From assembly GCA_038897035.1 (NCBI GenBank), contig JAWAXF010000003.1, forward strand, positions 64,064 through 128,063: a stretch of 64,000 bases of DNA, written 5' to 3'. Below are positions 13,624-64,000 of the stretch, in pieces (the first letter of the stretch is position 1; the number at the start of each line of letters is the position of its first letter). Made by a program: the position numbers and the translations under genes. The DNA comes from Candidatus Bathyarchaeia archaeon. Its GTDB lineage: Archaea; Thermoproteota; Bathyarchaeia; Bathyarchaeales; DTEX01. Below the pieces are notes generated by a model. It saw nothing but the letters and a program-made list of their open reading frames with translations. It had not been told where the DNA came from and made no database searches.

Positions 13624-13636
13624 GCAGAGCACACAA

Positions 13637-41863: not shown

Positions 41864-42454
41864 CTATCTTGGTTTGCATATGATCTCCTTAATTTTCCTT
41901 CTCTCCTCCTTCTTACCGAAGATTGTTTCTAGCTCAAGGAAATCCTTGCTTTTCATTGCCTCGATAACTATTGCGGTGTCTGCTCCTCCTCCCTTCTCAT
42001 AACCAAGTCTACCGGTTCCCCCAACAGCGATAACCTCTTCCTTTGGCTTTACAAAACCCATCTCCGTCGCAACTAATGCAACTTCAACACAAACCTTAAG
42101 CCCCTCACAGAACCTGCGCAGGGTATCCTGAACAACTTCTGGGAACTCATATTTGACATCCGAGGCATAACAGAAATTATGCCCCATCTGTTCTATTCTT
42201 CGTCGCAGGTCTTCTGGAAAACCTGGAAATTGAGGACCGCTTATGCTTACGATGGTTAACTTAATGTCGGTATCCTTAAAGATTTCTAAGGCTCTTTCAG
42301 CGGTGAACCCTGCTATGGAGGCCACAATAACATTTTTTATGCCCCTTTTTTGAGCTCTTTCCTTGGCTAATTTAAGTGTATGATCAGTATTATGCCTTCC
42401 GCCAGACTCAAAATAAACAATCTTCTCTACACTTATGCTGGCCAACTTCACCAC
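41864..42454 (-). CDS. Pyruvate kinase C-terminal (alpha/beta)-domain-like protein
   Basis: IVYFESGGRHNTDHTLKLAKERAQKRGIKNVIVAS...GGGADTAIVIEA...EIICKPR matches the stand-alone PK_C-like family pattern as I recall it. Confidence 0.55.
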   Translation of the reverse strand: MVKLASISVEKIVYFESGGRHNTDHTLKLAKERAQKRGIKNVIVASIAGFTAERALEIFKDTDIKLTIVSISGPQFPGFPEDLRRRIEQMGHNFCYASDVKYEFPEVVQDTLRRFCEGLKVCVEVALVATEMGFVKPKEEVIAVGGTGRLGYEKGGGADTAIVIEAMKSKDFLELETIFGKKEERRKIKEIICKPR

Positions 42455-42616
42455 CCCGAGCTAAATGTAATTATTGTAATTATTATTAATAACATTAACA
42501 TTAATTTAAGAATTTAGGCATCATTAGGGCGTGCTAATTAGTTTAGTTATGATATAATATGATCAATTGATCTTAGAGCATTGGTGTAAACTGGATGCGT
42601 GTAATTTTCCATAAAA

Positions 42617-42659
42617 TCGACTCTAATTCAATGAAAAGAAAAATTAATTTTAGAGTCGA
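42617..42659. promoter_or_regulatory. 10-bp perfect inverted repeat with 23-nt spacer
   Basis: TCGACTCTAA (42617-42626) and TTAGAGTCGA (42650-42659), in the divergent intergenic region. Confidence 0.4.
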
Positions 42660-42785
42660 AACGGTGTTAATAAAACAAAAGATAGTCTCTAGATCTGGAA
42701 AAACTACACATTCAATGTAATATACTTCGCACATTTTTGCTTAAGAAGGCTACTCATCCCGTAAATTTGTAAATGTTTTTAAGAC

Positions 42786-42806
42786 ATTATTGAGAATCTC
42801 AATAAT
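42786..42806. promoter_or_regulatory. 21-bp perfect palindrome (candidate operator)
   Basis: ATTATTGAGAATCTCAATAAT ends 19 nt upstream of the ATG at 42825. Confidence 0.45.
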
Positions 42807-42824
42807 TAAGGGGAATGAAAATTT

Positions 42825-43925
42825 ATGTCTATAGTGTTTTTCGGCGTCCCTTTAGATCCTGATGACAGGTATGAAAGATGCCTCATTAAACGTGCATATA
42901 TTTATGCTCTTATTGGAGGACATGTTCCAACGCCAAACTTTCTCACACCATATGAGGCGCTCATGCATTACCTACAAGAAATCTTTGCGAACCCAAAATT
43001 TGTTAGGTTAGGTGAGTTACCCGTGGACTCATGGCTCACACCTAAGCCAAGTTTTAAAGATCTCTCTTTAATAAACCCTGAGTCGTATTCCGCTTTTCTA
43101 GCAGCTGGTTGCTGTAGGGATTATGCAGAAATGGTTAACCTTTTTGTTAAAAGGAAAGTTCTTCCAAACAAATTTGTGATGATAGGTGTCGATCACTCCT
43201 CTACAGGTGGATGCCTAAAAGCTCTCTCAAGTTTTTATGGTATAGAAAACTTGGGTGTAATTATACTTGATTCCCATTTCGACGCCTTGCCCATAAGACT
43301 TAGAAAAAGTCTCTTCTCGTATTTTAAAGGGCATAATATCCCCACACTTATGCCTTACGCCAACAATGTTGAGGATGTCTTAGAATTAGACACCCCCGAA
43401 ACTTATAATAGCGGGAGCTTTCTCCGGTACTTGTTAGAGGAGAGAATCATTCTTCCCGAAAATACTATAATAGTTGGACCAGCAGATTATCCAGGTGAAG
43501 AGCTTGAAAAAATAGAGGATGAGAGCGTTAAAAAGTGGATTAATGAATATAGGCAATTTGAGAAGGAAGGCGTAACCATTTTACCACGTGTTAGATTAAG
43601 AAAAGAGGGAACAGGTCCCTTAAAGGCATTTTTAAGTAATCTAAGAGCACCCTATATTTATATATCTTTAGATATAGATGTAATGTCCTTTGAAGGGGTT
43701 TACGCTGCTAGAATATTAAACACGAGAGGGTTAGAACCAGAGGAAGTTTATAAAATACTTGAAATAGTCAGAGAATATATTATCCAGGAAGGAATTGATC
43801 TAATTGGCTTTGACTTAATGGAGATCGATGTTCACACAGCTAATGCCCATTTAAAGAATGGAACAGTTGACAGAACCTACGAAATATCCAAAATAATTAT
43901 AAAGAAGATAATAGACGTCATGTAG
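42825..43925 (+). CDS. Arginase/ureohydrolase-fold metallohydrolase, divergent
   Basis: FFGVPLD, GVDHSSTGG, ILDSHFDA, SLDIDV and DLMEIDV correspond to the binuclear-Mn ligand motifs (GGDHS, DAHxD, SxDxD, E-x-N/D). It has long insertions and an unknown substrate. Confidence 0.65.
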   Translation: MSIVFFGVPLDPDDRYERCLIKRAYIYALIGGHVPTPNFLTPYEALMHYLQEIFANPKFVRLGELPVDSWLTPKPSFKDLSLINPESYSAFLAAGCCRDYAEMVNLFVKRKVLPNKFVMIGVDHSSTGGCLKALSSFYGIENLGVIILDSHFDALPIRLRKSLFSYFKGHNIPTLMPYANNVEDVLELDTPETYNSGSFLRYLLEERIILPENTIIVGPADYPGEELEKIEDESVKKWINEYRQFEKEGVTILPRVRLRKEGTGPLKAFLSNLRAPYIYISLDIDVMSFEGVYAARILNTRGLEPEEVYKILEIVREYIIQEGIDLIGFDLMEIDVHTANAHLKNGTVDRTYEISKIIIKKIIDVM

Positions 43926-44016
43926 CATATTCTGTTAAAATTGACTGATTGCTTCAAAAAAATTTAAAGGGTAGTAGACTTTAGCTTCTACAACATAAGA
44001 GAGCTGGTGAAGTCAA

Positions 44017-44658
44017 TTGTCTTTAGACGAGCTTATTGAAACATTTGTTAATCTTGAGGAGGAAAGGGTGCTTAAGATTGTTAAGAGACTAATTGAGGAG
44101 GGTAAAGATCCATCTGAGATCTTTGAAGCATGTAGAAGAGCGGCAGAATTTATTGGAGAAAAATTTGAAAATGGAGAATACTTCCTCTCCGAGCTAGTAT
44201 ATGCAGGCGAGATCTTCAATAACATTATGAAAGTTGTTCTTCCGCTAATCAGAAGGGAGATTAAACCAGCGGGCACAATACTTTTAGGTACTGTTCAGGG
44301 AGACATACATGATATAGGCAAGAATATCTTTAAGGTGTTTGCAGAAGCGGCTGGCTTTAAAGTCATAGATATTGGCGTTGATGTCCCTCCAGAGAAATTT
44401 GTGGAAGCCGTAAAGGCATATAATCCTGATATTGTCGGAATGAGTGGGCTTTTAACTATAGCTTATGATGCGATGAAGAGGACTGTTGAATCTCTAAAAG
44501 AGGCAGGCTTGAGAGATAAAGTAAAGGTAATAATTGGAGGAGGCAGGGTAAACGAGGATATAAAAAGGTATACAGGGGCGGATGAATGGGCTGATAATGC
44601 GGTAATTGGCGTAAAGAAGTGTAAGCAGATGTTGGGACTAGGGGATAAGATAACATGA
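44017..44658 (+). CDS. Corrinoid (B12-binding) methyl-carrier protein, MtaC/MtbC-like
   Basis: TTG start. N-terminal helical cap domain, then GTVQGDIHDIGKNI (DxHxxG), MSGLLT (SxL) and IIGGG. Confidence 0.85.
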   Translation: MSLDELIETFVNLEEERVLKIVKRLIEEGKDPSEIFEACRRAAEFIGEKFENGEYFLSELVYAGEIFNNIMKVVLPLIRREIKPAGTILLGTVQGDIHDIGKNIFKVFAEAAGFKVIDIGVDVPPEKFVEAVKAYNPDIVGMSGLLTIAYDAMKRTVESLKEAGLRDKVKVIIGGGRVNEDIKRYTGADEWADNAVIGVKKCKQMLGLGDKIT

Positions 44659-45899: not shown

Positions 45900-45991
45900 T
45901 AGGCTGGTTAAAATTCATTTAAACCTTCAACGACTCATGCTACGTTAAACTTATAAATAGATTTAAAGAAAAGGGGATTCCATCTTTCTTG

Positions 45992-46774
45992 TTATGTGCC
46001 CTTGAATATCGGTTTTCTCTTTTCCAGAAAAGCAGCTACTCCCTCTCTAAAGTCTTCCGTAGTGGAGATTAAGGCTATGAGCGCAGCCTCGTATGCTAGC
46101 CCGGTTCTTATATCTAAGTTAAGGCTTGAATTAATTAGCAGCTTAGCAAGAGCCAACGCAAGTGGAGGTTTACTTATTATTTCTCTTGCGATTTCCTCAG
46201 CAGTCGTCATAAGCTTGTCTAATGGTACAACTTTATTGACGAGCCCCATATCCCCCGCCGTCTTCGCATCGATCATCCTACCGGTAAAAATAAGCTCTTT
46301 TGCAACTGCTTTACCAACTAGCTTAGGTAAACGTTGAGTGCCACCGCCACCTGGGAAGAATCCGAGATTTACTTCTGGCTGGCCGAGCATCGCGTTCTCA
46401 GATGCTATGCGTATATCGCATGCTAACGCAATCTCAAAACCACCTCCAAGAGCATAACCATTAATTGCCGCTATAGCGGGCTTGCTACCCTCCTCTATAG
46501 ATAATGTTATCTCCTGTAACAGCCTGACGGCTCTAAACATTCTGATTGGGCTTGCGTCCTTAATAGATTTAAGATCTAGACCGGCGCAAAATGCTCTATT
46601 TCCAGCACCAGTAATTATTATTGCTCTGACATTATCATCTTTATTCGCATCATTTACCTCAGAAAGGATTTCGAGCATCGTCTCTTCGTTTAAGGCATTA
46701 AGCACCTCTTGACGATTTATGGTTATAATCGCTACATTATCCCTTTTCTCGTAAAAAGTGTTTTTTAATTCCAT
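45992..46774 (-). CDS. Enoyl-CoA hydratase (crotonase family)
   Basis: GAGNRAFCAGLDL and INGYALGGGFEIALACD oxyanion-hole motifs. Confidence 0.88.
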   Translation of the reverse strand: MELKNTFYEKRDNVAIITINRQEVLNALNEETMLEILSEVNDANKDDNVRAIIITGAGNRAFCAGLDLKSIKDASPIRMFRAVRLLQEITLSIEEGSKPAIAAINGYALGGGFEIALACDIRIASENAMLGQPEVNLGFFPGGGGTQRLPKLVGKAVAKELIFTGRMIDAKTAGDMGLVNKVVPLDKLMTTAEEIAREIISKPPLALALAKLLINSSLNLDIRTGLAYEAALIALISTTEDFREGVAAFLEKRKPIFKGT

Positions 46775-46786
46775 GAAACGTTCCCT

Positions 46787-47659: not shown

Positions 47660-47954
47660 TGATTACTCCCTCCAGCTTTACTCCACACACGCATAACATT
47701 TATTCATTGTTCTTCTTAAGATTTATTAAAATAAACCGCAAACAAATAAAAACAACACTTGAAGGTTCTAAAGGCTTTTTGGTTTAAAATGGGACTCCTA
47801 AACTCATACGTTTCTTCCAGAAAATAGCTGGTGTAAAGAGTTGCCTAATCCCGCATCTCTAAGGGCTTTCGTTTGAATAGAATTAAATAGCATCCAATTA
47901 CTTTTCATTCCAGAAATAGAGAGGTGAAGGAGTCTCTGTTAGTATCTGTACCAC

Positions 47955-48554: not shown

Positions 48555-49331
48555 TTGGGGGTAGTAATATTGAGACTTAGAGATAAAGTCGCGTTAATTA
48601 CGGGTGCGGGATCAGGAATAGGGCAGGCAACGGCAGTATTATTTGCTAAAGAAGGAGCAAAAATTGCAGTTGTTGATATAGTGAAAGAAACAGGTGAAGA
48701 AACAGTGAGAATGATTCACGATTTTGGTGGAGAGGCCATATTTATACAAGCTGACGTTGCTAAGGCTAATGAGGTACAGAAGATGGTGGAAACCACCGTG
48801 AACAACTATGGGGGACTTGATATACTCTTTAATAATGCTGGCATTAATATACCGGCTCCAATAACCGAAATAACGGAGGAAATTTGGGACAGAATAATAA
48901 ACGTAAACTTAAAGGGCGTCTTCTTAGGCTGCAAATATGCAGTCCCTCTAATGAAGAAGCAACGGAGTGGAGTAATCATAAATACAGCCTCGGCCCTTGC
49001 ATGGGTGGGGGCAATTAATTTCAGCGCTTACTGCGCCTCAAAAGGCGGAATCCTTGCCTTTACAAGAGCCTTAGCTTTAGAATTAGCGCCATATAATATC
49101 CGTGTTAACTGCATATGCCCGGGAGCGACCGATACCCCGCTCCTTCGGCAGCTATCGGGGAAAACTGAGAGGCCTAATGAGACGCTAGAATCGCACTTGA
49201 AGCTAATCCCATTGGGGAGACTGGGGAGACCCGAGGATATTGCTTATGCAGCTCTCTTCTTAGCCTCTGACGAGTCAGCTTTCATTACAGGAGCAGCCCT
49301 GCTCGTTGACGGAGGGTTCACAGCACGATAA
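48555..49331 (+). CDS. Short-chain dehydrogenase/reductase (classical SDR)
   Basis: TTG start. TGAGSGIG, NNAG and YCASKGG motifs. Confidence 0.88.
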   Translation: MGVVILRLRDKVALITGAGSGIGQATAVLFAKEGAKIAVVDIVKETGEETVRMIHDFGGEAIFIQADVAKANEVQKMVETTVNNYGGLDILFNNAGINIPAPITEITEEIWDRIINVNLKGVFLGCKYAVPLMKKQRSGVIINTASALAWVGAINFSAYCASKGGILAFTRALALELAPYNIRVNCICPGATDTPLLRQLSGKTERPNETLESHLKLIPLGRLGRPEDIAYAALFLASDESAFITGAALLVDGGFTAR

Positions 49332-49486: not shown

Positions 49487-50785
49487 TTATGGTAGTGGCC
49501 AGATCGGCTTCTCTACTGGAGCTTTGATCCACGATGGGACGTAAACTATATTCATGTCCCATTTTCCATCCTTCATTACGAATTGCGCTAGCGTGTTTGT
49601 TGTCTCGCATATGTGGTCCGGCCTGAATTTGACCTGACCCACAGGCATTTCTATATCCACTTTGGCGAACGCATCCCTTATTGCTGTTCTATCTAGGGTG
49701 CCTGCAACCTTTATGGCTTCGACTGCAACGTAGAAGGCGGTATATGCGATGCCTTCCATATGTGTCAAGCTCATGTCCCCGAAGTATTTCTGCCAGTTCT
49801 CCTTAAACCATTCATTTCCTTTGAATGGCAAAGTATACCACCAGTGAGTTTCAGCTGTTATTCCTTCAGCTAGCTCTCTACCTAAAGCCTCTGCCTCCGG
49901 GATCTTCATACATCTGCCGACACAGAACATTAATGGCTTAAAACCGAATGCGGCACATTGGCGTCTGAAAGCAATCCAGTCTGCTGGCAGAGTGTTAGCT
50001 ATGACCACGTTAACGCCTTCTTCCTTGAATTTTAGTATAATGGGTGTGAAATCAGTTATGCCTGGAGGATGCAGTCCTGGGTCAACTATCATGAAACCTG
50101 CTTCTTGTAGTTTCGGAGTTACTTTCTTTTTAGCGTCGCGTCCGCTTACATCGTCAGAGTAGAGTACTCCTATCTTCTTAATCTGGTCTTTCCACTGGCT
50201 GAGCCACTCTTTCCAAAGCATTCCGTAAATAGTATAGTTAAAGCTACAATGCCATGTCCATGTAAACTTGTTTCCGGGGATTGATGGGAGAGCGTTCATC
50301 GCGATCGTATCTACTGGGCTCATACTCAGTACTGGCTGTCCACCTACTTTCTCAGCGCTAATTACTGCTGGAACTGTAAATGGTGGTGGTGCACCAATGA
50401 ATATAACGAGATGCGCGACTTTCTCCGTTACGGCTTTTGTTGCAAGCTCAACATACCTGGAAGTTGAGCTCTCCCCATCATAGAATATCAGCTCTATTGG
50501 GTGATATTTGCCAGTCCCTGATAAATATACTCCACCCTTCGCATTAATTTCTGTTGCGAGAGCGGTCATCAAAAGTCTATGCCGTATACCTTCAGGCGCG
50601 TAACCTCCAGACAAGTTCAATACTACTGCAATCTTAATGGGTTCGCCTTTTTCTGTTGGGCGCACTTGCGTTTGAGAATAATAATAGTAGACCACAGCGG
50701 CGGCAGCGATGATTATAATAACTATTGCTATTAGAATAGCTTGCATTTTGCTAACAGCTTTTTTATTCCTCATATATTCCTTCAT
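49487..50785 (-). CDS. Liv-type (PBP type I) ABC substrate-binding protein, membrane-anchored
   Basis: N-terminal TM anchor (ILIAIVIIIIAAAAVVYYYY) followed by a ~390-aa LivJ/K-like two-lobe pattern. Confidence 0.8.
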   Translation of the reverse strand: MKEYMRNKKAVSKMQAILIAIVIIIIAAAAVVYYYYSQTQVRPTEKGEPIKIAVVLNLSGGYAPEGIRHRLLMTALATEINAKGGVYLSGTGKYHPIELIFYDGESSTSRYVELATKAVTEKVAHLVIFIGAPPPFTVPAVISAEKVGGQPVLSMSPVDTIAMNALPSIPGNKFTWTWHCSFNYTIYGMLWKEWLSQWKDQIKKIGVLYSDDVSGRDAKKKVTPKLQEAGFMIVDPGLHPPGITDFTPIILKFKEEGVNVVIANTLPADWIAFRRQCAAFGFKPLMFCVGRCMKIPEAEALGRELAEGITAETHWWYTLPFKGNEWFKENWQKYFGDMSLTHMEGIAYTAFYVAVEAIKVAGTLDRTAIRDAFAKVDIEMPVGQVKFRPDHICETTNTLAQFVMKDGKWDMNIVYVPSWIKAPVEKPIWPLP

Positions 50786-51339
50786 CCTCGATACTCTAAT
50801 ATTTTCAACCCGTTTTATAAATCTTTCCCAATATTCACTTCTATGATTTTGGTTTCTTTAGGTTCATAGGTTGCCGTTTTAGTTCTATTTTTAAGCGATT
50901 CTTCTTGCCAAACCTCTGGCAGAGTTGCTTATAAGGTCTCCGGGCTCACCCAAGGACATGAAAACCTTAATAATAAAATTGTCAAGGGAATTGAAGAAAC
51001 ACAGAAACTGATGGAGCGCTTCCTAATAAGGGAGCTTATAAAATGGCAATCCGACATTTTTATTTAGAAGTTCGTCCGTAGAACTATGGGGTGTAGCCTC
51101 TGGATAACTGTATATTTGAAAAGAAGGAAATATCTGATTTAAGAAGCACGCTTGCCGTAGCGGAGGCAAATGGAGAGCTTATTCGCATAAAAAAACCTGT
51201 TAATGTTAAGCTCGAGCTAGTTGGAGAATACCTCAAGCATGCAGGGGGAACCCCTGTTCCTCAGCCGACGAAGATTGGGCCAATCGTATTATTCGAAAAC
51301 GTTTTCCGAGCGGTTAATTCACAAGTAATTCCATACGGG

Positions 51340-52530
51340 ATGCCTGTGGTGGCTGGCGTCCTTGGAAGTCGCAGAAGGGTTGCATTATACTTTAACACTC
51401 CTGAAAAGAACCTTGCCTTAAAGATGTTGGAGGCTATACGTAATCCGATTCCTCCGATATATGTTAGAGACGCGCCATGCCAAGAAGTTGTGATTGATAG
51501 GAATATTGACTTAACCGCGCAGCTTCCCATACCAACAATGTCATATGATTGCGCTGGCCCTACTATAACTATGGGTCTAATACTTGGGATTGATCCAGAA
51601 ACAGGTCAAAGAGACGTAACTTTTCATAGGATGTTTGTCATAGCTCCAGATACGCTCACTGCATTAATGGGACCTATTAGACATATAAAGCAAATGCAAT
51701 TAAAAGCGGAGGCTAAAGGTGAACCCTTCCCCATATCCATAAATATAGGCATAGACCCCTTTAGCGCGATTTCAGCGGGTATTTCGTCACCGACAGGCAC
51801 AGGTTTAGATGAGCTCGCTGTTGCAGGAGCATTAAAAGGCTCCCCTATAGAATTGGTGAAATGCAAGACCATTAATTGTGAGGCCATAGCCAACGCTGAA
51901 ATAGTGCTTGAGGCTGAAATACAACCAAATGTAAAAATTATGGAAGATACGGTTTCAGAGAAGAAGGGCTGGTCTATGCCTGAAATGGCTGGATATGTGG
52001 GGAGGGCAGCTTTAGCCCAAGTTGTTAAGGTGAAGGCAATAACCTGCAGGATGAAACCTATCTACCAGACTTTAGTCACCCCTGGTGAAGAACACAATGT
52101 TATTATGGGTATTCCTGGAGAAGCTGAAATCCTAAACGCTGCTTGGAAAGCGGGATATCGTGATTTACTTACAGACGTACATCTTTTACCAGCTGGTGGG
52201 GGGAAGCTAATTGCTGCGCTTCAGGTTAGAAAGAGAAGCACGGATGATGACTTAGAAGTTAGGAACCTTGCCTTAATCGCGCTTGCAACGAGACTTGAAA
52301 TGCGATACGTGATTATAGTGGATGAGGATGTAGATATACGTGATCCCATGGACTTATGGTGGGCCTTTACAACAAGATTTAATCCAAAAGAAGACCTTAT
52401 AGTAATTGATCAATGCAAAGTCTGGCCTGGCTTAGCGGAACATATACGCATAACTAAGGCGATTCTCGACTGCACAGTACCATGGGATAAAAAAGAGGAG
52501 ATGCGAAGACCTCGCTGGAAAAGAGACTAG
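51340..52530 (+). CDS. UbiD-family (prFMN-dependent) decarboxylase/carboxylase; start unresolved
   Basis: The first canonical start is at 51340. The same frame stays open back to 51097 and encodes a UbiD-like N-terminus (EISDLRSTLAVAEANGELIRIKKPVNVKLEL...PIVLFENV). See findings. Confidence 0.75.
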   Translation: MPVVAGVLGSRRRVALYFNTPEKNLALKMLEAIRNPIPPIYVRDAPCQEVVIDRNIDLTAQLPIPTMSYDCAGPTITMGLILGIDPETGQRDVTFHRMFVIAPDTLTALMGPIRHIKQMQLKAEAKGEPFPISINIGIDPFSAISAGISSPTGTGLDELAVAGALKGSPIELVKCKTINCEAIANAEIVLEAEIQPNVKIMEDTVSEKKGWSMPEMAGYVGRAALAQVVKVKAITCRMKPIYQTLVTPGEEHNVIMGIPGEAEILNAAWKAGYRDLLTDVHLLPAGGGKLIAALQVRKRSTDDDLEVRNLALIALATRLEMRYVIIVDEDVDIRDPMDLWWAFTTRFNPKEDLIVIDQCKVWPGLAEHIRITKAILDCTVPWDKKEEMRRPRWKRD

Positions 52531-52736: not shown

Positions 52737-54017
52737 TTGAACGATAAACCGCGCATTTGTTTAGTGCCTATAGGCAGAATATCTAATGATGTTTTTAAAC
52801 GTGATATTGACAATGTTGAAAATCTGCTTAGGGAATTCGATGTTGAGCTGAAGAAGATCGATGCTATCTCAAATGAGCTACAGGCCCCTCAGTTAAGGAA
52901 TTTACCTGAGAAAGAGAGCTATGATCTTACGCTTTTATTATCCCTTCATGGAGCTACGGCCCATTTGCAAGTATCTGCGGCTGAATGCTTAGAAAAACCT
53001 GTTGTTATTTGGTCGTTGCCCAAGCGTTTTTCCTTCCCTACCTCTGCCAGCGCTTATGGTGCTTTGAAAGAGCGGGGCTTTTGGGTAACCCTTTTGCATG
53101 GAGAGTCTAATGACAAAAAGCTTGCGGAAGAGGTTGTTACGCTGGCAAGAGTGGCATTTGCCATTCATAAACTCTCAAAAACACGTATTGGCATTCTTGG
53201 GAGCTTACCGCACTATATGTTAGCCTCTCTTTATGACTCTGAAGCTCTTGAAAAAAGATTTGGCGTTAAACTAAAACAGCTTTCACATTTCGAGTTTATG
53301 AGCATCTTAAAATCTTTCCAACTTGAAAAGAAGGGTAATATTGAGCAAGTCCTACGTGAAAATGTGAATGTTCAAACGGATGAATGTTCTCTAAGCAAGG
53401 GAATAGCCGTTCACAAAGCAATAAAGGAAATTTTATGCAGGTATAAACTTAACGCAATTGCGTTAGGCTGTCACCCGGACCTTGAGGCCGAGCTTCAAAT
53501 TAATCCTTGCTTTGGTTTTGTTGAAGATTCATATGCCATCGGCTGTGAATGTGATGTCTTGTCGCTCATCTCCGCTCTATTTCTGAAATATCTAAGCGGG
53601 GTTTCAGCCTGGATAACGGATATATATTCGCTAGAGGGCGACAGGCTTACGTTAGCTCATTGCGCAGCGGCAAAATCATTAGCTATGGGTAATGAAGTTA
53701 TAATTTCTGGAAAAACACAAAAGGAAATAGGAGATAGACCACATACCCTTGCCGAATGTAGGCCTAAAATTCCAAAAGGGCCCGCTACTTTAGTTAGACT
53801 TTTGGGGAAACAGGCTGATAGATTACATTTAACCTTTGGAGAGATAGAGAGCTGTGATGTGGAGGAGCAAGTTAAAGTGACCTTAAGGATTCAAGGCAAC
53901 CCCAAAGAATTTATCCGGTATGCTATGGGCAACCATTATACTATGGCACTAGGCGATCTTAGAGAAGAAGTAAAAATTCTTTGTGAACGATTAAACATCA
54001 AGGTGATAGAGACTTAG
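52737..54017 (+). CDS. FucI/AraA-superfamily isomerase-like protein
   Basis: 426 aa with a Rossmann-like N-domain and the ...AIGCECDVLS...GNHYTMALGD pattern. These recall the Glu/Asp and His metal/catalytic positions of sugar isomerase-like proteins. The assignment is tentative. Confidence 0.4.
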   Translation: MNDKPRICLVPIGRISNDVFKRDIDNVENLLREFDVELKKIDAISNELQAPQLRNLPEKESYDLTLLLSLHGATAHLQVSAAECLEKPVVIWSLPKRFSFPTSASAYGALKERGFWVTLLHGESNDKKLAEEVVTLARVAFAIHKLSKTRIGILGSLPHYMLASLYDSEALEKRFGVKLKQLSHFEFMSILKSFQLEKKGNIEQVLRENVNVQTDECSLSKGIAVHKAIKEILCRYKLNAIALGCHPDLEAELQINPCFGFVEDSYAIGCECDVLSLISALFLKYLSGVSAWITDIYSLEGDRLTLAHCAAAKSLAMGNEVIISGKTQKEIGDRPHTLAECRPKIPKGPATLVRLLGKQADRLHLTFGEIESCDVEEQVKVTLRIQGNPKEFIRYAMGNHYTMALGDLREEVKILCERLNIKVIET

Positions 54018-55236: not shown

Positions 55237-57816
55237 CTATTTCATTATGAAGAACTTTGGCATTTCTTCTGGTTTGGCTTTGTATACTTTGCATAGGAGG
55301 GCTCTGTCGTACCATGCTCCTGTCTTTTCGTCTAAAGTTGCTGGGTCATCTTCAGTTAAGATATTAGCATTTGATATTAAGGCTCCCCCCAGCCATGGCT
55401 CCTCTGCTGGAAGCTCTGGGTACCACCATGAAGCCTCAACATTTACGACTCTAGGGTGAATGTGAGCGCCTATTCGGGCCCTTTGCAATATTCTTCCTCT
55501 TCTAGTTTCAACCCATACCCAGTCACCGTCCGTTATGCCAAGTTTTCTCGCCGTTTCATAGTGAATGTCGCATAGAGGCCACGGATGTTGCTCTCTGAAG
55601 TTCATTCCCCACTGGCGGTACTCTGAGTGGAACATCGGCCTAAACCTTCCGCCAGTCGTTAATATAAGTGGATATTCCTCAGCTAATTCAGGGGTTCTAA
55701 CAGGGCTCTCGAATGGTTCCTCATACTCGGGAAGGGGATCGTATCCCAAGTCTTCTAGTATTGTGCTCCAGATTTCAGCCCTTCTGCTTGGCGTAGCAAA
55801 GCCTCTTGGCTTACCTGTTCTTGGATCGATCAGAGCATACGCTCTATCATCTTCTCTTCTCCATCCCGGTGTCTCTGAAATAATGAAGCCTCTTCTTGCA
55901 GCCTCTTTCAATGTTAAACCTATCCTTGCAAGGCGGTATTCAACAACTTCTCTTTGGTTTTTCCATGGGAAGTATTCGCCTAATCCAAGGCGTACCGCAA
56001 GACCTCTGAAGAGGTCATAGTCACTGTGTCGATCTCCGAGAGGTTCTATAGCATTTTCGCCTACAGCCATCATCTCCTGATAATCTTCCCAATTGCAACA
56101 GTATGGTACTTCTAGAGATTTGGCTGCCGCTGGTAGCACGTAGTCTGCTAAGGCTGCTGTAGGTGTCATCCAGTAGTCTTGAACAACATGTAACTCTAAA
56201 TTAGGACTCTTCAAAGCCTTAATAACTAGCTTGGTATTCGGAGCCCACATAACCGGGTTTCCACTCCAGGTTATCAGCGCTTTTATCGGATATGGTTTTC
56301 CAGTAAGTATTGCCCGCCATATAAGCGGCACTGATGTAACCATGGTATGTCCTCCAGCATTTTGAGGTATACCCCATGTCCTATGATAATATTCATTATA
56401 ACGGTCATATGCTGGCCAAGCCATAGCCTTATGCTGGTCTGCGCCTAGCTGTTTAAGCTTTGTTTCAGGCTTTATGTATTCATGCCCCTCAAGCTCAGAT
56501 TCTCTAACCGCAAGTTTTCCTCCGATAATCGGGCCGGGTCTAGAACGGTATAAACGTATGCCTCCTCTAACATCATAGTTTCCTGTTATTAAATGAATTA
56601 TCGTCATGGCTATGTGGTTATCTGAAGTATTCTTTCCAGCTTGGTAGAGTGAGACACCCGCGCCTATTCCTCCGGGTCTTCTAGCCCAGAACATTCTAGC
56701 TGTTTCAACGATCTTTTCAGCTGGGATCCATGTTATTTCTTCGACTTTTTCAGGAGTATATTTACTTACCCGCTCGATAAGAAGCTGCCAAACTGTTTTA
56801 CATTCAACTTCCCGTCCATCTAAAAGCCTAACTTTGTATTTTCCTGTTAAAGCTGGCTGGGCATCTTTGGGCCTGTACTCCATGCTTTCAGAAACCCAAA
56901 TGGCCGGGGCGTTCTCACGAACATTCCAGATAACAAAGTTCTCACGTGAACCGCCAGCTATCAAGTCGCTTTCCCGGAGAGTCTTCCTGGTGTCTAAGCG
57001 CACAAGAAACGGAGCATTAGTCCATCCTTCCACAAATTCTTTGTCGTATAACCCCTCATCAATCAAAATTTTAATCCAAGCTAAAAGCAAGGCAGCATCA
57101 GTGCCCGGCCTAATCTGAAGCCACATATCTGCCTCTCTAGCAGTTTCAGTACACCTCGGATCGACACAAACTAAGAAAATGTTCTTACGGTTAAGTATAA
57201 TACTCTGCCACAAAGTAATAAAAGACTCTTTAGGATTAAAGCCCATAGATACAAAATATCTTGCACCATCACTTACGTCTGGGAATTCAACCGAGAACGC
57301 CCCTGTCATACATTGTTCTACAGCGCTTCCAGGGTGGTGACATATGGTGCTTGGGTCCCCCAAGTTAAAGGGGTTTCCAAAAAGATACGCGAATCTTGAT
57401 CTTGCCCAAAAAACGTCTGAACGCATTGTTCCTTCAATGAAAGCAAGACATTCGGGACCATATTTAGCTTTTAGTTCCTTGAGCTTCTCGGCTATTTCGT
57501 CCAAAGCTTGCTCGTAGGGTATGCGTTGCCATTTGCCCTCTCCCCGTTCGCCCACGCGCTTCAAGGCGTACATAAGCTGGTCGGGATGCTCTAACCACTT
57601 TACAGGAAAGTTGGGTATAATAGCCCTGTCAGGACAAACTAGCCGTTCCTGCACCAAAGGATCTGGATGAAGAGCCCAAAGTTTTGTCATTGGATGTTCA
57701 GGATTTCCCTCGACCTTAATGATTTTGCCAGTGTTCCTGTCCACGTATGCAAGAAGCCCGCAGTGCATAAAGCAGCCGCCAGCGCCATTGTGGCATATTA
57801 TCCTTCTAACCTCCAT
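55237..57816 (-). CDS. Bis-MGD molybdo/tungstopterin oxidoreductase catalytic subunit, cytoplasmic
   Basis: MopB architecture: GKIIKVEGNPEHP, IRPGTDAAL and a C-terminal GDWVWVETRRG beta-barrel. Variant N-terminal Cys cluster CHNGAGGCFMHCG...C. No twin-arginine signal. Start taken at MEVRRIICHNG; the track ORF starts at 57894. Confidence 0.85.
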   Translation of the reverse strand: MEVRRIICHNGAGGCFMHCGLLAYVDRNTGKIIKVEGNPEHPMTKLWALHPDPLVQERLVCPDRAIIPNFPVKWLEHPDQLMYALKRVGERGEGKWQRIPYEQALDEIAEKLKELKAKYGPECLAFIEGTMRSDVFWARSRFAYLFGNPFNLGDPSTICHHPGSAVEQCMTGAFSVEFPDVSDGARYFVSMGFNPKESFITLWQSIILNRKNIFLVCVDPRCTETAREADMWLQIRPGTDAALLLAWIKILIDEGLYDKEFVEGWTNAPFLVRLDTRKTLRESDLIAGGSRENFVIWNVRENAPAIWVSESMEYRPKDAQPALTGKYKVRLLDGREVECKTVWQLLIERVSKYTPEKVEEITWIPAEKIVETARMFWARRPGGIGAGVSLYQAGKNTSDNHIAMTIIHLITGNYDVRGGIRLYRSRPGPIIGGKLAVRESELEGHEYIKPETKLKQLGADQHKAMAWPAYDRYNEYYHRTWGIPQNAGGHTMVTSVPLIWRAILTGKPYPIKALITWSGNPVMWAPNTKLVIKALKSPNLELHVVQDYWMTPTAALADYVLPAAAKSLEVPYCCNWEDYQEMMAVGENAIEPLGDRHSDYDLFRGLAVRLGLGEYFPWKNQREVVEYRLARIGLTLKEAARRGFIISETPGWRREDDRAYALIDPRTGKPRGFATPSRRAEIWSTILEDLGYDPLPEYEEPFESPVRTPELAEEYPLILTTGGRFRPMFHSEYRQWGMNFREQHPWPLCDIHYETARKLGITDGDWVWVETRRGRILQRARIGAHIHPRVVNVEASWWYPELPAEEPWLGGALISNANILTEDDPATLDEKTGAWYDRALLCKVYKAKPEEMPKFFIMK

Positions 57817-57974
57817 ATCCCTGCTCAATGAAGGCACCCCTATTTTTACAAAGTAAAAGTAGAAACGCTTGCTTTTATTTATCTTTTTCATCAACGAGAA
57901 TTTGTCATCAAGTTATATCTTATAAAATTTAAAAACACTTTTACCAAAAAATCCCGAATCTATAAAGTGCTAAG

Positions 57975-59812: not shown

Positions 59813-59871
59813 TGATTTACTGTATATATGTAGAAGTAGAAAATGTTACAATATATGTTAATCATATCACA

Positions 59872-60594
59872 TTAAACCCCAAAGTAAGCTTTCATTAATT
59901 CCTTGCTTTTAAGTATTTCTTTTGATCTACCTTCCAGAGTTATTCGCCCGGACCCCATTATATATGCGTAATCGCTTATTTCAAGGCTTCTTTTAATGTT
60001 CTCATCTACAAGAAGAATTGTTATTCCTAGTTGCTTAATTTCATCAACCTTTTTGTATATGTCCTCTCTAACCTTTGGAGCTAAACCTAAGGTTACCTCA
60101 TCTAACATTAACAATTTTGGATCAGCCATCAAGCTTCTTGCAATAGCAAGCATTTGCTGTTCTCCCCCACTTAAAGTTCCGGCTTTTTGGTTTTCTCGTT
60201 CGGCAAGCACCGGAAAAAGTTCATAAATTTCCTTAAGCTTTTGAGTCATATTTTTCCTTTTTGTCTTTGGATAGCAACCCATCAGCAAATTCTCCTTAAC
60301 CGTCATTCGTGTAAAAAGTTTTCGACCCTCAGGTACCTGAATCACTCCAAGATCAGCTATACGCCAAGGAGGAAGATGATCAATTCTTTCACCCTTAAAT
60401 TTAATGGTACCTTTTTTAGGGTGGATTAGCCCGGAAATTGTTTTGATAAGCGTTGATTTTCCCGCACCATTTGGTCCTACTAAAGCAACCGTGGTCCTCT
60501 CATGTATTTTCATAGAAATATCTCGTAAAACGTCTATGTATTCGTAAGAGACGTCAATGTTATTTATTTCTAAAAGCACGTCCTCCGAGTTCAT
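59872..60594 (-). CDS. livF: ABC transporter ATP-binding protein
   Basis: Walker A GPNGAGKST, signature LSGGEQQ and Walker B LLMLDE. Confidence 0.9.
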   Translation of the reverse strand: MNSEDVLLEINNIDVSYEYIDVLRDISMKIHERTTVALVGPNGAGKSTLIKTISGLIHPKKGTIKFKGERIDHLPPWRIADLGVIQVPEGRKLFTRMTVKENLLMGCYPKTKRKNMTQKLKEIYELFPVLAERENQKAGTLSGGEQQMLAIARSLMADPKLLMLDEVTLGLAPKVREDIYKKVDEIKQLGITILLVDENIKRSLEISDYAYIMGSGRITLEGRSKEILKSKELMKAYFGV

Positions 60595-60599
60595 GCGGT

Positions 60600-61313
60600 T
60601 TATCCCCCCAAATATATGTCAACGACTTCTTTGCTACTTAGCACATCTTTTGGCGCGCCCTCAAACAACTTCATACCACGATGCATAAACATTACTCTAT
60701 CAGCAACTCGAGTAATAAGCTCCATCCTATGCTCCACCAAAACTATTGTTATTCCCGTGCCAGAAACTTTTTTAATAACCTCTGCTAAGTAATCAATTTC
60801 CTCCTCTCGCATTCCAGCCGCAGGTTCATCTAAAAGTAGAAGCTTGGGCTTACATGCCAGAGCTCTTGCTATCTCAAGTCTTTTTAATTGAAAAGGAAGC
60901 AAGGATCCGGCGGGAACATCCTTTAAGTTTTCTATTTTTAACAATTTTAACACTTCCATATCATACTCAAGAGCATCCGCATACTTCATGTTTTGACTTG
61001 AAATTGAAGCAACCAGCAAATTCTCCAATACTGTGAGTCTCGGGAATGGACGAGGAATTTGATAGGCTCTTGCCATCCCCATTCTACAAATTTTATGGGG
61101 GGGTAAGCCTTTAATGGAACGCCCTAAAAATTCTATCTTCCCAGCATCTGGTAAATATATGCCCGTTATAACATTGAAAAGGGTTGTTTTGCCAGAGCCA
61201 TTCGGCCCTATTATCCCAAAAATTTCGTTCTTATAAACTTCAAATGTTACATTTGACAAAGCATATAAGCCGCCAAAGCGTTTAGTTATACCTTCCCCTC
61301 TTAAGATGACCAT
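60600..61313 (-). CDS. livG: ABC transporter ATP-binding protein
   Basis: Walker A GPNGSGKTT and Walker B LLLLDEPAAG. Confidence 0.9.
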   Translation of the reverse strand: MVILRGEGITKRFGGLYALSNVTFEVYKNEIFGIIGPNGSGKTTLFNVITGIYLPDAGKIEFLGRSIKGLPPHKICRMGMARAYQIPRPFPRLTVLENLLVASISSQNMKYADALEYDMEVLKLLKIENLKDVPAGSLLPFQLKRLEIARALACKPKLLLLDEPAAGMREEEIDYLAEVIKKVSGTGITIVLVEHRMELITRVADRVMFMHRGMKLFEGAPKDVLSSKEVVDIYLGG

Positions 61314-61499
61314 TAGCTATTAACACACCAATTCGTTTTTAGCAATAATAGCCATCTTACCTATTGTTAATGAGTTTTATAAATTTTACTCAAAAATTTA
61401 CATAATTCGCTTCAGCGGTCATAGACTAAGTACGTCCAAGATAATAACTCAAAAAATAAATATTTATCTCTCTAAATAAGATTTTAGAGGTGGGAAATA

Positions 61500-64000
61500 T
61501 TGAGTAAAACGGAAAAAATGAACTATATATCTGCAGGTTTATGCGGGGTTTCGGGCTCTTCGTTACCCAGCGAAGTCCATGTGAGGAACGGAAAAATTAT
61601 AAGAATTCTTCCATTCCACTTTCCAGAGAATGTTAGGCTTTACGAGATTAAGACTGATAAAGGGGTCTTTACTAGGCCAAGAAAGCATGTCCCATGGACT
61701 TATATGCTGGCCTTTAAAAAGAGGGCGTTTTCGCCAAACAGGGTCATGTATCCCTTGAAGAGGATTGATTGGAACCCTGAAAACAGGAACCCACAAAATA
61801 GGGGAAAATCAGGCTTTGTGAGGATTTCTTGGGAGGAAGCCTTAGACATAATAGCGAATGAGATAAGAAGAATAAAAGAAGTTTACGGCTCGACAGAACC
61901 TATATTAGTATTAGCGGATGGCCATGGACAATCAGGTTATTTGCAAACAACCCATGGCTGGGCGCATTACCTTTTTGATAAGCTTGGTACAGGATGGACC
62001 ATATCTGTTAGAAATCCTGACAGTTGGGAAGGATACTATTATGGTGCAAAACATGTCTGGGGGTTCGACGAGTCGGTTGGGGAGCCTAACCAAGACGCTA
62101 TATGGGACGACATCCTACAGAACTGTGAAATGATTATCTTTAGTGGCTGCGACCCTGAAACAACCGTACCTGGCTTCTCAGGACAGATGGGTACGTATTT
62201 CTGCGATTATCTGAAGAAAGCTGGGATTAAGATTGTTGGTGTATCTCCAGATATGAACTATGCTATAGCCTTACATGCGGATAAGTGGATTCCAGTACGT
62301 CCCAACACGGATGCAGCGCTCTACCTTGCAATCGCACATGTATGGATAACAGAAAAAAGCTATGATGAGGAATATGTAAGAACGCATTGTATTGGTTTTG
62401 ATGAATTTAAGAATTATGTTTTAGGTAAAGATGATGGCACCCCTAAGACGCCTGAATGGGCGGAAAAGATTTGCGGAACTCCATCCTCAGCCATCAAAGC
62501 CTTAGCTAGAGCATGGGCTAGAAAGCGAACATCTTTAGCCGTGCATTATGGAGGCCCAAAGATCAGAGGTTTCTTGTCACATTTACCAGCACGACTAGAG
62601 GCATATTTACTTGCTATGCAGGGGCTCGGAAAGCCTGGAAGACAATTCGTAAGGCTTATTAGGACGCTTCCTTGGCTAGTTTTCAAAAAATTGCCTCCAA
62701 TTCCACAATATCCAGAAACGCTCAGGGAGGGCATCCCGCCACAGCCACCAGCTCCAGAATATATAGGCTCTCCTCCAGAGGGGAGACCTTTTATACTTAA
62801 AACTCTAATTCCTGAGGCCATACTTAACCCGCCAGTCTACTGGTATGGTAAGAATATTATTGTCTGCCCAAGCGAAGATCAATTTAAGGTCTATAGATTT
62901 CCTCCATATGATGGGCACCCGGGAATAAGGGCAATCTGGAATGAGAACTCATGTATGACTGCATGCTGGAACTATGGGTATAAAATGATTGAGGCTATGA
63001 GGAGTCCTAAGATAGAGTTTGTGGTATCTGTGACCCCTTGGCTTGAGAATGATGCTCTCTTCTCAGATATAATATTGCCAGCCCAAACGATTTTTGAACA
63101 TGAAGACCTTGTAGTGGTGCATCACTCAGACACATATGGTATCTTTTACCAAGAAAAGTCTATTGAGCCCATAGGCGAATCTAAAAGTGATTATGAAATT
63201 TACAGGCTTATTGCGGAGAGACTTGGCATTGGAGAATATTTCCTTCAAGTAGAGGAGCTACTAAGAAAAACCTACGAAACGACATTAGCCTCTAGAAAGC
63301 TTCCGTGGGAGGAATTCAAGAAGAAAAAATGTTACATTTATGATGCACCTACATGGGAAGAATGGCTTAAGATAAAAAAGAATGAAATGGGCTTTGAAAA
63401 ATATGAGGGTGGCACGGCTTGGTTCTATAAGCAAGGAACAGGTTTAGGGACCCCAACAGGCAAGATAGAATTTGTTTCTCAGAGAATATTAAAGTACTCT
63501 CCAGAGGATGAAGAAAGACCACCCCTCGCAAAGTGGGTAGCTCATGGAGAAAGCCCTCTTAGTCAAAAGGCTAGGGAATATCCATTCTTAGTCGTCTCAA
63601 ATCATCCAAGATGGAGACATCACACTATAGGTGATGACATAACGTGGTTAAGAGAACTTCCTTCATGTAAGGTAAGAGGACCGGATGGCTATTTATACGA
63701 GCCTGTGTGGATCCACCCCAAGGATGCTGCTAAGAGGGGTATTAAAAATGGAGATATAGTGATGGTTTACAATGACAGAGGAGCCATTCTATGCGGAGCC
63801 ATCGTTACCGAAAGGATAATTCCAGGGGCTCTACAAATAGCGCACGGCTCTCGTTTGGATCTGATTTCCATAGAAGCCAAAATTGATAGAGGTGGTTGCA
63901 TCAACCTTATATGTCCCTCACCGCGCGAAAAATATAAAGAGGGGACTCCTGTAAAGGTGCCTGAAATGGCTGTCAGCGGTTTTCTTGCTGACATCAAGAA
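61500..64000 (+). CDS. Pyrogallol-phloroglucinol transhydroxylase large-subunit-like molybdoenzyme (AthL-like), 3' end outside window
   Basis: Absent from the ORF track because it has no stop codon inside the window. I translated it by hand from the TTG at 61500 (GAGGTG lies 8 nt upstream, with an in-frame TAG at 61485). The frame is open to base 64000 (833 codons). No N-terminal FeS Cys motif. Motifs: GKIIRILP, NPDSWEGYYYGAKHVWGF, GKDDGTPKTPEWAEKICG, ESKSDYEIYRLIAERLGIGEYF, RGIKNGDIVMVYNDRGAIL, DRGGCINLICP. Confidence 0.8.
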   Translation, partial: MSKTEKMNYISAGLCGVSGSSLPSEVHVRNGKIIRILPFHFPENVRLYEIKTDKGVFTRPRKHVPWTYMLAFKKRAFSPNRVMYPLKRIDWNPENRNPQNRGKSGFVRISWEEALDIIANEIRRIKEVYGSTEPILVLADGHGQSGYLQTTHGWAHYLFDKLGTGWTISVRNPDSWEGYYYGAKHVWGFDESVGEPNQDAIWDDILQNCEMIIFSGCDPETTVPGFSGQMGTYFCDYLKKAGIKIVGVSPDMNYAIALHADKWIPVRPNTDAALYLAIAHVWITEKSYDEEYVRTHCIGFDEFKNYVLGKDDGTPKTPEWAEKICGTPSSAIKALARAWARKRTSLAVHYGGPKIRGFLSHLPARLEAYLLAMQGLGKPGRQFVRLIRTLPWLVFKKLPPIPQYPETLREGIPPQPPAPEYIGSPPEGRPFILKTLIPEAILNPPVYWYGKNIIVCPSEDQFKVYRFPPYDGHPGIRAIWNENSCMTACWNYGYKMIEAMRSPKIEFVVSVTPWLENDALFSDIILPAQTIFEHEDLVVVHHSDTYGIFYQEKSIEPIGESKSDYEIYRLIAERLGIGEYFLQVEELLRKTYETTLASRKLPWEEFKKKKCYIYDAPTWEEWLKIKKNEMGFEKYEGGTAWFYKQGTGLGTPTGKIEFVSQRILKYSPEDEERPPLAKWVAHGESPLSQKAREYPFLVVSNHPRWRHHTIGDDITWLRELPSCKVRGPDGYLYEPVWIHPKDAAKRGIKNGDIVMVYNDRGAILCGAIVTERIIPGALQIAHGSRLDLISIEAKIDRGGCINLICPSPREKYKEGTPVKVPEMAVSGFLADIK

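Follow-up and report, generated by a model that had tools for sequence, protein, structure and literature searches.

We analysed a 64,000-nt stretch of DNA (hereafter, the window) from a Candidatus Bathyarchaeia archaeon, and focused on the gene cluster that occupies its last 22 kb (41.9–64 kb) and runs on slightly past its end. We judge, with slightly better than even confidence, that this cluster imports and transforms hydroxylated, possibly methoxylated, benzenoid compounds without oxygen, using an enzyme of a new AthL/BthL-type clade, an acetylene-hydratase-like (AH-like) enzyme and an AroY-like decarboxylase. Comparison of the encoded proteins supports placing the best characterised relatives of the four most diagnostic ones (AthL/BthL-like, UbiD-family, methyltransferase I and AH-like) in anaerobic aromatic metabolism. 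The cluster is probably an incomplete and divergent version of the bacterial anaerobic breakdown of polyphenols. A preliminary description of this DNA had proposed an island for anaerobic degradation of methoxy- and polyhydroxy-aromatic compounds; the genes that it listed at about 41.9–64 kb are all present with the folds it gave, and most of its family assignments hold.

The proposed scheme would draw on two parts. Part A (41.9–49.3 kb) would contribute an arginase-fold hydrolase, a corrinoid protein, a UroD-type methyltransferase I, a crotonase, a 3-hydroxyacyl-CoA dehydrogenase, a cupin and a short-chain dehydrogenase/reductase (SDR). Part B (49.5 to about 65 kb) would contribute a binding protein, the UbiD-family decarboxylase, an AraA/FucI-fold protein, an SDR, the AH-like enzyme, a Liv-type ATP-binding cassette (ABC) system and the AthL-like/BthL-like enzyme. 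The ABC system would import a phenolic acid, from which the UbiD-family enzyme would strip the carboxyl group. The AthL/BthL-like enzyme, in which the Ser ligand and the His, Asp and Tyr residues are kept and the second-substrate region differs, would shift or add a ring hydroxyl. The AH-like enzyme may catalyse a dehydroxylation, like its catechol-dehydroxylase relatives, or a hydration. An SDR would reduce the activated ring, and alicyclic hydroxy-ketone intermediates would go through the isomerase-fold protein and the cupin; the 3-hydroxyacyl dehydrogenase and crotonase would channel the ring-opened product to acetyl-CoA. The corrinoid protein and methyltransferase may pass methyl from methoxy groups to the tetrahydromethanopterin (H4MPT) pathway, for which a formyltransferase gene lies in the window. 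Family assignments, conserved catalytic residues, synteny and co-localisation across phyla were observed directly, and from them we infer which substrates are used and in what order the steps run.

Molybdenum or tungsten enzymes of the cluster

Three genes encode the two putative Mo or W enzymes.

61518..64000, forward strand, cut by the window end: AthL-like (RhL/PgtL-family) large subunit of the bis-molybdopterin guanine dinucleotide (bis-MGD) type, 866 aa in full on the contig; best match in the Protein Data Bank (PDB) 4v4c_A
~64106–64975 (window-equivalent), directly downstream of the AthL-like gene: BthL-like small subunit, 289 aa, with Fer4_11 and CarboxypepD_reg domains
55237..57816, reverse strand, open reading frame (ORF) extending to 57894: AH-like bis-MGD (Mo or W) enzyme, 859–885 aa; PDB match 2e7z

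Genes past the window end were read on contig JAWBVL010000003.1 (131 kb; assembly GCA_038840575.1), part of which is identical to the window and which runs on for 3.6 kb; a window coordinate x is found there at 67595 − x.

The best solved relative of both AthL-like and BthL-like subunits was AthL/BthL of Pelobacter acidigallici (4v4c). The large subunit matched AthL (4v4c_A) with E = 2.6e-123 and 416 bits, versus 238 bits for dimethyl sulfoxide (DMSO) reductase, and like AthL it has neither an N-terminal iron-sulfur (FeS) motif nor a Tat signal. The small subunit matched 4v4c_B with E = 4e-50 over residues 4–280, including the C-terminal beta-barrel domain that accompanies Fer4_11 in both proteins. 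A BthL-like FeS subunit had been predicted just downstream of the window, and the 289-aa protein was found there.

In the alignment of the AthL-like clade, H142, D174, S175 and W176 were invariant, and Y404 was nearly so. In the window clade, the Ser ligand within its Asp-Ser-Trp motif is conserved, as are a His and a Tyr aligned to AthL His144 and Tyr404; the roles of the conserved residues in AthL were reportedly described by Messerschmidt et al. in 2004. Four differences from AthL were found in the window protein: HH is changed to HG, the 'GGACR' segment is replaced, Arg153 is changed to Thr, and the Tyr560 loop is deleted, the last through a 12-residue deletion over positions 556–567 that extends across the whole window clade. 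We take Arg153 and Tyr560 to be part of the second-substrate site of AthL. Because His, Asp-Ser-Trp and Tyr404 are kept, whereas Arg153 is exchanged and Tyr560 lost with its loop, the chemistry of the AthL-like protein is probably related to that of AthL, but its substrate or co-substrate probably differs.

The preliminary description had assigned the AthL-like enzyme the conversion of pyrogallol to phloroglucinol, as one step of a route consisting of O-demethylation, gallate or protocatechuate decarboxylation, this conversion, reduction by an SDR, ring opening and beta-oxidation. The route is favoured by AthL/BthL being the best solved relatives of the pair, by the AroY-like nature of the UbiD protein, and by cupin orthologues in sibling genomes that adjoin a cyclase or a BKACE gene. 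However, in a neighbour-joining tree of AthL and proteins from the related loci, the window protein, which is 36% identical to AthL, fell in a separate clade, whereas true AthL orthologues with 48–58% identity (in loci L018, L070, L065, L058 and L072) grouped with AthL itself. The window enzyme is a paralogue, and the true orthologues in sibling genomes (58%) belong to another type of cluster. The phylogeny proposed as a check did not support strict orthology with AthL, and the pyrogallol to phloroglucinol role is unproven because of the 36% identity, the separate clade and the missing Tyr560 loop. The window also contains neither cyclase nor BKACE, and its SDRs are not identifiable as phloroglucinol reductase. 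We regard this exact route as unlikely.

The AthL-like family is very large, with more than 4900 matches and 592 genome loci, often with several paralogues per locus. Its hosts include Bathyarchaeia, Nitrososphaeria, Nezhaarchaeota, Thermoplasmata, Alphaproteobacteria and Dehalococcoidia, and in 53 of 80 related loci the large-subunit gene is followed by one for a BthL-like small subunit. Members of the AthL-like clade adjoin UbiD decarboxylases in Alphaproteobacteria, where the locus adds an Amidohydro_2 protein, and in Thermoplasmataceae, where it adds a major facilitator superfamily (MFS) transporter and an esterase. This neighbourhood with UbiD supports a family-level link of the clade to aromatic acids. 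Each of the loci L070 and L072 contains four AthL-family paralogues. The cultured archaeon Conexivisphaera calida (AP018732.1; L009, 7355–8350) has an AthL-like homologue (55% identity) not far from a Rieske/VanA_C-type oxygenase gene; no BthL-like gene turned up at this locus.

The second cytoplasmic bis-MGD enzyme noted earlier is present and is acetylene-hydratase-like. It matched acetylene hydratase (2e7z) with E = 8e-102 and 345 bits, compared with 184 bits for the next family, and the Cys metal ligand is present, aligned to 'YMCIG' of acetylene hydratase. The catechol dehydroxylases of gut Actinobacteria belong to the acetylene hydratase group. Like acetylene hydratase and the catechol dehydroxylases Dadh, Cldh and Hcdh, the protein is predicted to be a cytoplasmic single subunit; its link to the dehydroxylases runs through membership of this group. 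It differs in an insertion of about 75 residues (query 267–343) and in an N-terminal Cys motif of unusual spacing (C-x6-C-x3-C...C), for which Pfam Molybdop_Fe4S4 gave E = 0.003, under its cut-off. A search of a representative library found 1160 clusters of this family at E ≤ 1e-30.

The three genes recur together elsewhere. In the Bathyarchaeia locus L011, an AH-like orthologue with 77% identity directly follows the BthL-like gene, and orthologues of the isomerase-fold protein (72%) and of the 287-aa SDR (88%) complete the module. Besides L011, the Chloroflexota loci L066, L074 and L075 (Anaerolineae/Chloroflexia) have the AthL-like, BthL-like and AH-like genes side by side. In L064 (Desulfobacteraceae) and L070 (Dehalococcoidaceae), the AH-like gene lies a few kb from the AthL-like/BthL-like pair; as in the window, genes for a binding protein and a Liv-type ABC system accompany them. 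Because this adjacency or proximity recurs across phyla, the AH-like enzyme is no incidental neighbour of the AthL-like/BthL-like pair. A bolder interpretation, which we consider doubtful, is that an undescribed Mo/W module, made up of the AH-like enzyme, a hydroxyl-transferring enzyme of the new RhL/PgtL clade whose second-substrate site is remodelled, and the FeS partner of the latter, occurs in hot-spring Bathyarchaeia, Chloroflexota and Desulfobacteraceae, is coupled in archaea to the AraA-fold isomerase and an SDR, and dearomatises and opens polyphenol rings without cyclase or BKACE.

The Mo enzymes may instead form an oxidative hydroxylase system of the resorcinol or 3,5-dihydroxybenzoate type (RhLS/DbhLS-like). 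Water would be the oxygen donor, electrons would leave through the BthL-like FeS subunit, UbiD would decarboxylate the hydroxylated acid, and the AH-like enzyme would act on a catecholic intermediate. The combination of AthL/BthL-like enzyme, AH-like enzyme and decarboxylase parallels the operon of Thauera aromatica AR-1 for 3,5-dihydroxybenzoate degradation, which includes an AH-like homologue and presumably also encodes the AthL/BthL-type hydroxylase DbhLS. The 3,5-dihydroxybenzoate pathway needs a decarboxylation step for its benzoate substrate. Loss of the presumed second-substrate loop of AthL fits a hydroxylase better than a transhydroxylase, and the association with UbiD recurs in the clade. 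The pathways of Aromatoleum anaerobium and T. aromatica AR-1 (outlined in PMC10084136) likewise have an AthL/BthL-type hydroxylase and an AH-like bis-MGD protein in one catabolic locus, a likeness of gene set. However, the window contains neither hydroxyhydroquinone dehydrogenase nor a Bqd-type ring-cleaving complex, E1/E2 genes being found only by L011, and no nitrate respiration or other high-potential electron acceptor system is evident for the archaeal host. We consider this hydroxylase scheme improbable, and about equally possible as the exact route through pyrogallol and phloroglucinol.

Decarboxylase, transport and methyl transfer

The remaining part B genes are as follows.

49487..50785, reverse strand: Peripla_BP_6 solute-binding protein with an N-terminal membrane anchor; Pfam Peripla_BP_6 E = 2.9e-50
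51100..52530, forward strand: UbiD-family decarboxylase, AroY/VdcC-like; UbiD_N, UbiD and UbiD_C domains when read from 51142
52737..54017, forward strand: L-arabinose/L-fucose-isomerase-fold protein, 426 aa; AlphaFold2 pLDDT 89, Foldseek TM 0.75–0.81 to AraA/FucI at 12–14% identity
54045..54908, reverse strand: SDR, 287 aa; Pfam adh_short_C2 E = 8e-57, conserved along with the Mo enzymes
57975–58937 and 58934–59812, reverse strand: two LivH/LivM-type ABC permeases; Pfam BPD_transp_2 for both
59872–60594 and 60600–61313, reverse strand: two LivF/LivG-type ABC ATPases; Pfam ABC_tran for both

The UbiD protein bears out the decarboxylase proposed earlier. Its best PDB matches are the 3,4-dihydroxybenzoate (protocatechuate) decarboxylases AroY (5ny5/5o3n/5o3m, E = 6e-87), and it shares all three UbiD domains with AroY, VdcC and LpdC.

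The AraA/FucI fold attributed to the 426-aa protein was borne out by AlphaFold2 and Foldseek. The family is tiny: a word-limited search among 5.8 billion proteins detected 11, six of them at 64–100% identity, and the named ones among these are from Bathyarchaeia. A 72% orthologue lies in the L008/L011 cluster, where an 88% orthologue of the 287-aa SDR stands by the FucI-like and AH-like genes.

This fold suggests another reading, in which the substrates would be alicyclic polyols or hydroxy-ketones derived from cyclitols or sugars, with the isomerase-fold protein and the SDRs as the core and the Mo enzymes hydrating or hydroxylating non-aromatic rings. Distant relatives of the isomerase-fold protein adjoin a thiamine diphosphate (ThDP) enzyme, metallo-beta-lactamase (MBL)-fold hydrolases and a 2-hydroxyacid dehydrogenase, with a lactonase in one of the two loci, and the AH-like family includes a non-redox hydratase. 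In contrast, the AroY-like UbiD points to aromatic acids, and all characterised RhL/PgtL-family enzymes act on phenols (PMC10100899). Alicyclic substrates are therefore very improbable in our judgement.

A Liv-type importer had been taken to fit aromatic acids. The LivHMGF-type genes and a binding protein are present, and orthologues of the ATPases with 70–73% identity lie near the L011 cluster. However, the nearest solved relatives of the binding protein are urea-binding proteins, matched weakly (E = 3e-14), so that the transporter argument for aromatics is unsupported.

The genes for methyl transfer lie in part A, next to an arginase-fold gene.

42825..43925, forward strand: arginase-fold protein, 366 aa; Pfam Arginase E = 5.5e-17
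44017..44658, forward strand: corrinoid protein with cap and Rossmann B12-binding domains; Pfam B12-binding_2 and B12-binding, 84% orthologue in L090
44655..45899, forward strand: methyltransferase I of the UroD superfamily, 414 aa; Pfam URO-D, overlapping the corrinoid gene by 4 bp

Together, the corrinoid and UroD-type proteins make up a methyltransferase I system. The corrinoid protein is MtgC/MtbC/MtaC-like and scored under every NCBIfam equivalog cut-off. The only strong PDB match of the methyltransferase was CdmB (9rui; full length, E = 2.4e-69). CdmB groups with the MtoB/MtvB/OdmB/VdmB O-demethylases, yet it uses chloromethane and haloalkanes, not methoxy-aromatics (PMC13222342). Homologues of the methyltransferase are common in thermophilic archaea and Firmicutes, and their neighbourhoods show a mobile corrinoid protein and methyltransferase pair with no constant partner. 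In Ignisphaera, the homologous pair adjoins an MtrH-type gene. In L094 and L095, from a Methanomethylicia metagenome-assembled genome (MAG) and a Desulfurococcaceae MAG, the pair stands as an isolated two-gene cassette, with toxin-antitoxin genes and MFS fragments alongside in the former.

The Mto systems of Methermicoccus and Archaeoglobus, the Mtv, Odm and Vdm systems of acetogens, and the Cdm system of Acetobacterium dehalogenans likewise have a UroD-superfamily methyltransferase I beside a two-domain corrinoid protein. Unlike them, the window has neither a methyltransferase II nor an activating enzyme, and the arginase-fold neighbour found in the window and in L090 is absent from the consulted descriptions of those systems. 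Bacterial-type methyltransferase I genes have been reported in Bathyarchaeia before (PMC10989822). The aryl O-demethylation proposed for the pair is consistent with membership in the MtoB/O-demethylase group, but because the enzyme is closest to CdmB and the cassette also occurs away from aromatic genes, the pair may or may not act on methoxy-aromatics.

The translation of the arginase-fold gene contains GVDHS, DSHFD and SLDIDV motifs, typical of a binuclear-Mn site, and the protein is probably a binuclear-Mn hydrolase; its scores are far under the NCBIfam cut-offs for arginase and agmatinase. A 77% orthologue occupies the equal position in L090, and the gene is conserved beside the methyltransferase pair only in Bathyarchaeia.

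These results bear on a generic heterotrophic role, in which the Liv system would import amino acids, the crotonase and dehydrogenase would serve beta-oxidation, the Mo enzymes would be S- or N-oxide reductases, and the corrinoid system would use methylamines, methanol or haloalkanes. The top NCBIfam models of the AthL-like protein are BisC, DmsA and TorA, and JGI calls its relatives trimethylamine N-oxide (TMAO) reductase; the chloromethane activity of CdmB, the urea binders nearest to the binding protein, and the corrinoid cassettes elsewhere also fit this role. However, those NCBIfam scores are far under cut-off, AthL outscored DMSO reductase by 416 to 238 bits, and a BthL-specific partner is present. 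The decarboxylase is AroY-like, and the AthL-like clade stands repeatedly by UbiD and, in single loci, with Amidohydro_2, PF04199 cyclases or an esterase. We therefore hold generic heterotrophy to be distinctly improbable.

Ring opening, sibling clusters and contrary evidence

The other part A genes concerned with later steps are listed below.

45992..46774, reverse strand: enoyl-CoA hydratase (crotonase); Pfam ECH_1 E = 2.7e-68, 90% orthologue in L090
46787..47659, reverse strand: 3-hydroxyacyl-CoA dehydrogenase-family protein; Pfam 3HCDH_N and 3HCDH, 93% orthologue in L090
47955..48305, reverse strand: small cupin, 116 aa; Pfam Cupin_2
48555..49331, forward strand: classical SDR, 258 aa; Pfam adh_short_C2 E = 1.8e-72

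The crotonase and the 3-hydroxyacyl-CoA dehydrogenase had been proposed to process ring products. Both genes are present, but the established enzymes for opening the ring are missing from the window. In Clostridium scatologenes, the phloroglucinol pathway consists of PGR, DPGC, HOHDH and TAL, which include an SDR, a PF04199 cyclase and a BKACE (PMC10470551). The window resembles that cluster in its SDR and 3-hydroxyacyl-CoA-dehydrogenase-family protein; it differs in having neither cyclase nor BKACE, and in a conserved cupin with no counterpart in that cluster.

The missing enzymes occur in sibling Bathyarchaeia clusters, the cyclase in L014 and L018 and BKACE with a CoA-transferase in L090; L014 and L090 share an orthologous cupin. 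In L014, the cupin orthologue (78% identical) comes immediately behind an AthL-like/BthL-like pair and has a PF04199 cyclase and an SDR for neighbours. In L090, the orthologue (89% identical) sits between an SDR and BKACE, with CoA-transferase and acyl-CoA synthetase genes. The L090 segment at 9479–17245 is syntenic with 46–48.3 kb of the window and has extra genes by the cupin: CoA-transferase A/B, an AMP-forming acyl-CoA synthetase, an SDR and BKACE. These are missing from the window genome, either through loss here or through gain in L090.

Locus L018 (Bathyarchaeia MAG JZ-1_201803_bins_90, scaffold 4; 4107–7538 and 21190–22044) contains an AthL orthologue, 58% identical to that of P. acidigallici, with BthL. 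It also holds a second AthL-like/BthL-like pair, a paralogue of the window family, together with a TorD-like chaperone, a thiolase-like pair, a crotonase and a PF04199 cyclase. L018 and the window-type cluster L011 belong to the same genome. The sibling clusters, L018 among them, are better pyrogallol/phloroglucinol candidates than the window. In view of these clusters, the lineage likely handles polyphenols.

We also considered a resorcinol Bqd-like system assembled from the 2-oxoacid dehydrogenase E1/E2, succinyl-CoA-synthetase-like and Ldh_2 genes by L011. This was rejected: the genes occur neither in the window nor in any other locus, and we took them as incidental because they stand only beside L011.

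Several results weigh against an oxygen-independent aromatic pathway in the window. The AthL-like protein lies outside the AthL clade and has an altered second-substrate region. Every NCBIfam match of the cluster proteins is far under its equivalog cut-off. The UbiD protein, in contrast to AroY, VdcC and LpdC, reached 251 bits against the VdcC cut-off of 650, has no UbiX/VdcB or VdcD gene nearby, and has no canonical start: there is no ATG, GTG or TTG upstream of 51340, while the N-domain homology reaches about 200 nt further 5'. NCBI annotates a CTG start at 51100 (476 aa), and other pipelines give a truncated product of 394–396 aa; the 5' end could have a non-canonical start or be damaged. 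The Pfam annotation of the window, which covered the larger ORFs (at least 150 aa) and the cupin, contained no UbiX/flavin prenyltransferase, no MtrH-type methyltransferase II and no corrinoid activase. Searches by tblastn with the L014 cyclase and an L090 BKACE fragment found no PF04199 cyclase or BKACE in the window. The preliminary description had already listed UbiX, a pterin methyltransferase with corrinoid activase, and BKACE as missing, in agreement with these searches.

Further contrary points concern substrate. CdmB, the nearest characterised methyltransferase, has no methoxy-aromatic activity, and the corrinoid protein and methyltransferase cassette is also present in Methanomethylicia and Desulfurococcaceae, away from any aromatic genes. 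Sugar-acid or lactone-like gene neighbourhoods surround distant relatives of the isomerase-fold protein. The SDRs and the binding protein carry no substrate signal: both SDRs are present as proposed for a phloroglucinol reductase, but they resemble hundreds of SDRs to the same degree, and no phloroglucinol reductase could be picked out of their generic PDB lists (the top 60 for the 258-aa SDR). Finally, the case is genomic throughout.

Genomic setting and meaning for Bathyarchaeia

The closest relatives of the window proteins are annotated as Candidatus Bathyarchaeia, and the nearest genome loci are Bathyarchaeia MAGs whose sample labels suggest hot springs. The archaeal origin was independently confirmed by a signal recognition particle (SRP) RNA at 13672–14000 on the forward strand (Rfam RF01857, 160 bits), the sole Rfam match when the borders were checked for tRNAs and riboswitches. 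Housekeeping genes occupy the first 41 kb: those for histidine and shikimate biosynthesis, serine hydroxymethyltransferase (SHMT), ribosomal protein L10e, phosphoenolpyruvate (PEP) synthase, diphthamide synthase, Sua5, RadA, Cdc6, topoisomerase, PAC2, Hsp20, H4MPT formyltransferase and thiolase. The thiolase had been counted as a pathway member; the gene is real (16455–17756), but it lies 25 kb off among the housekeeping genes. Near the formylmethanofuran:H4MPT formyltransferase gene (18648–19550, reverse strand), a 478-aa ORF (20080–21516, forward strand) aligns with no more than the C-terminal part of the Molybdopterin domain; it probably encodes an FwdB/FmdB-like subunit.

The left border of the cluster is formed by a conserved gene.

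41864..42454, reverse strand: PK_C-like alpha/beta-domain protein, 196 aa; Pfam PK_C E = 2.7e-7

This protein is 88% identical to its orthologue in L090, a locus of another Bathyarchaeia genome (GCA_038846195.1), which likewise comes after Hsp20. Synteny with L090 continues through the left part of the cluster, from Hsp20 and the PK_C-like gene to the arginase-fold, corrinoid protein, methyltransferase, crotonase, 3-hydroxyacyl-CoA dehydrogenase and cupin genes, with 77–93% protein identity.

The last 22 kb had been described as AT-richer than the rest, at 42% versus 53% GC in sampled lines. The direction was right and the size overstated: GC was 0.413 at 41.9–64 kb versus 0.479 upstream, and all 60-nt lines averaged 0.413 versus 0.480. 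Per-gene GC at third codon positions (GC3) was 0.380 in the cluster, 0.496 at 14–41.8 kb and 0.578 at 0–14 kb (Mann-Whitney p = 2e-7). The windowed statistics proposed as a check thus gave a clear GC3 difference, but the change is a gradient or staircase, with the best single breakpoint at 21.5 kb, a second near 40 kb, and a straight line nearly as good. The GC3 drop (0.58 to 0.50 to 0.38) also runs through housekeeping genes, which is odd for a single replicon segment. No tRNA was found in the border check, and no integrase or transposase was among the Pfam matches of the window ORFs. An acquired island would be marked by an abrupt change in composition, by a tRNA or mobility genes at its edge and by absence from syntenic relatives; none of these signs was seen, although GC3 is clearly lower. 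Because GC changes gradually, the left part is shared with L090, and there is no tRNA or integrase-type domain, an acquired island is not demonstrated. The region is a flexible catabolic neighbourhood of lower GC3, with no demonstrable recent acquisition.

Bathyarchaeia are among the most abundant archaea of anoxic sediments. They have been argued to degrade lignin-derived material, with O-demethylation as the sole biochemically supported step so far (PMC10989822). The statement that no such pathway had been characterised in Archaea is weakened by earlier publications on archaeal O-demethylase systems and on a phloroglucinol cluster predicted for Archaeoglobus (PMC10989822, PMC10470551). In the literature searched, no published link between Bathyarchaeia and pyrogallol was found, and papers that name Bathyarchaeota with phloroglucinol draw no such link.

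Mo enzymes that shuffle hydroxyl groups, together with an AroY-type decarboxylase and the AthL, cyclase and BKACE of the sibling clusters, would give these archaea an oxygen-free route from polyphenols (tannins, flavonoids and lignin monomers) to acetyl-CoA. The recurrence of the AthL-like/BthL-like/AH-like triad across phyla points to a widespread uncharacterised enzyme module.

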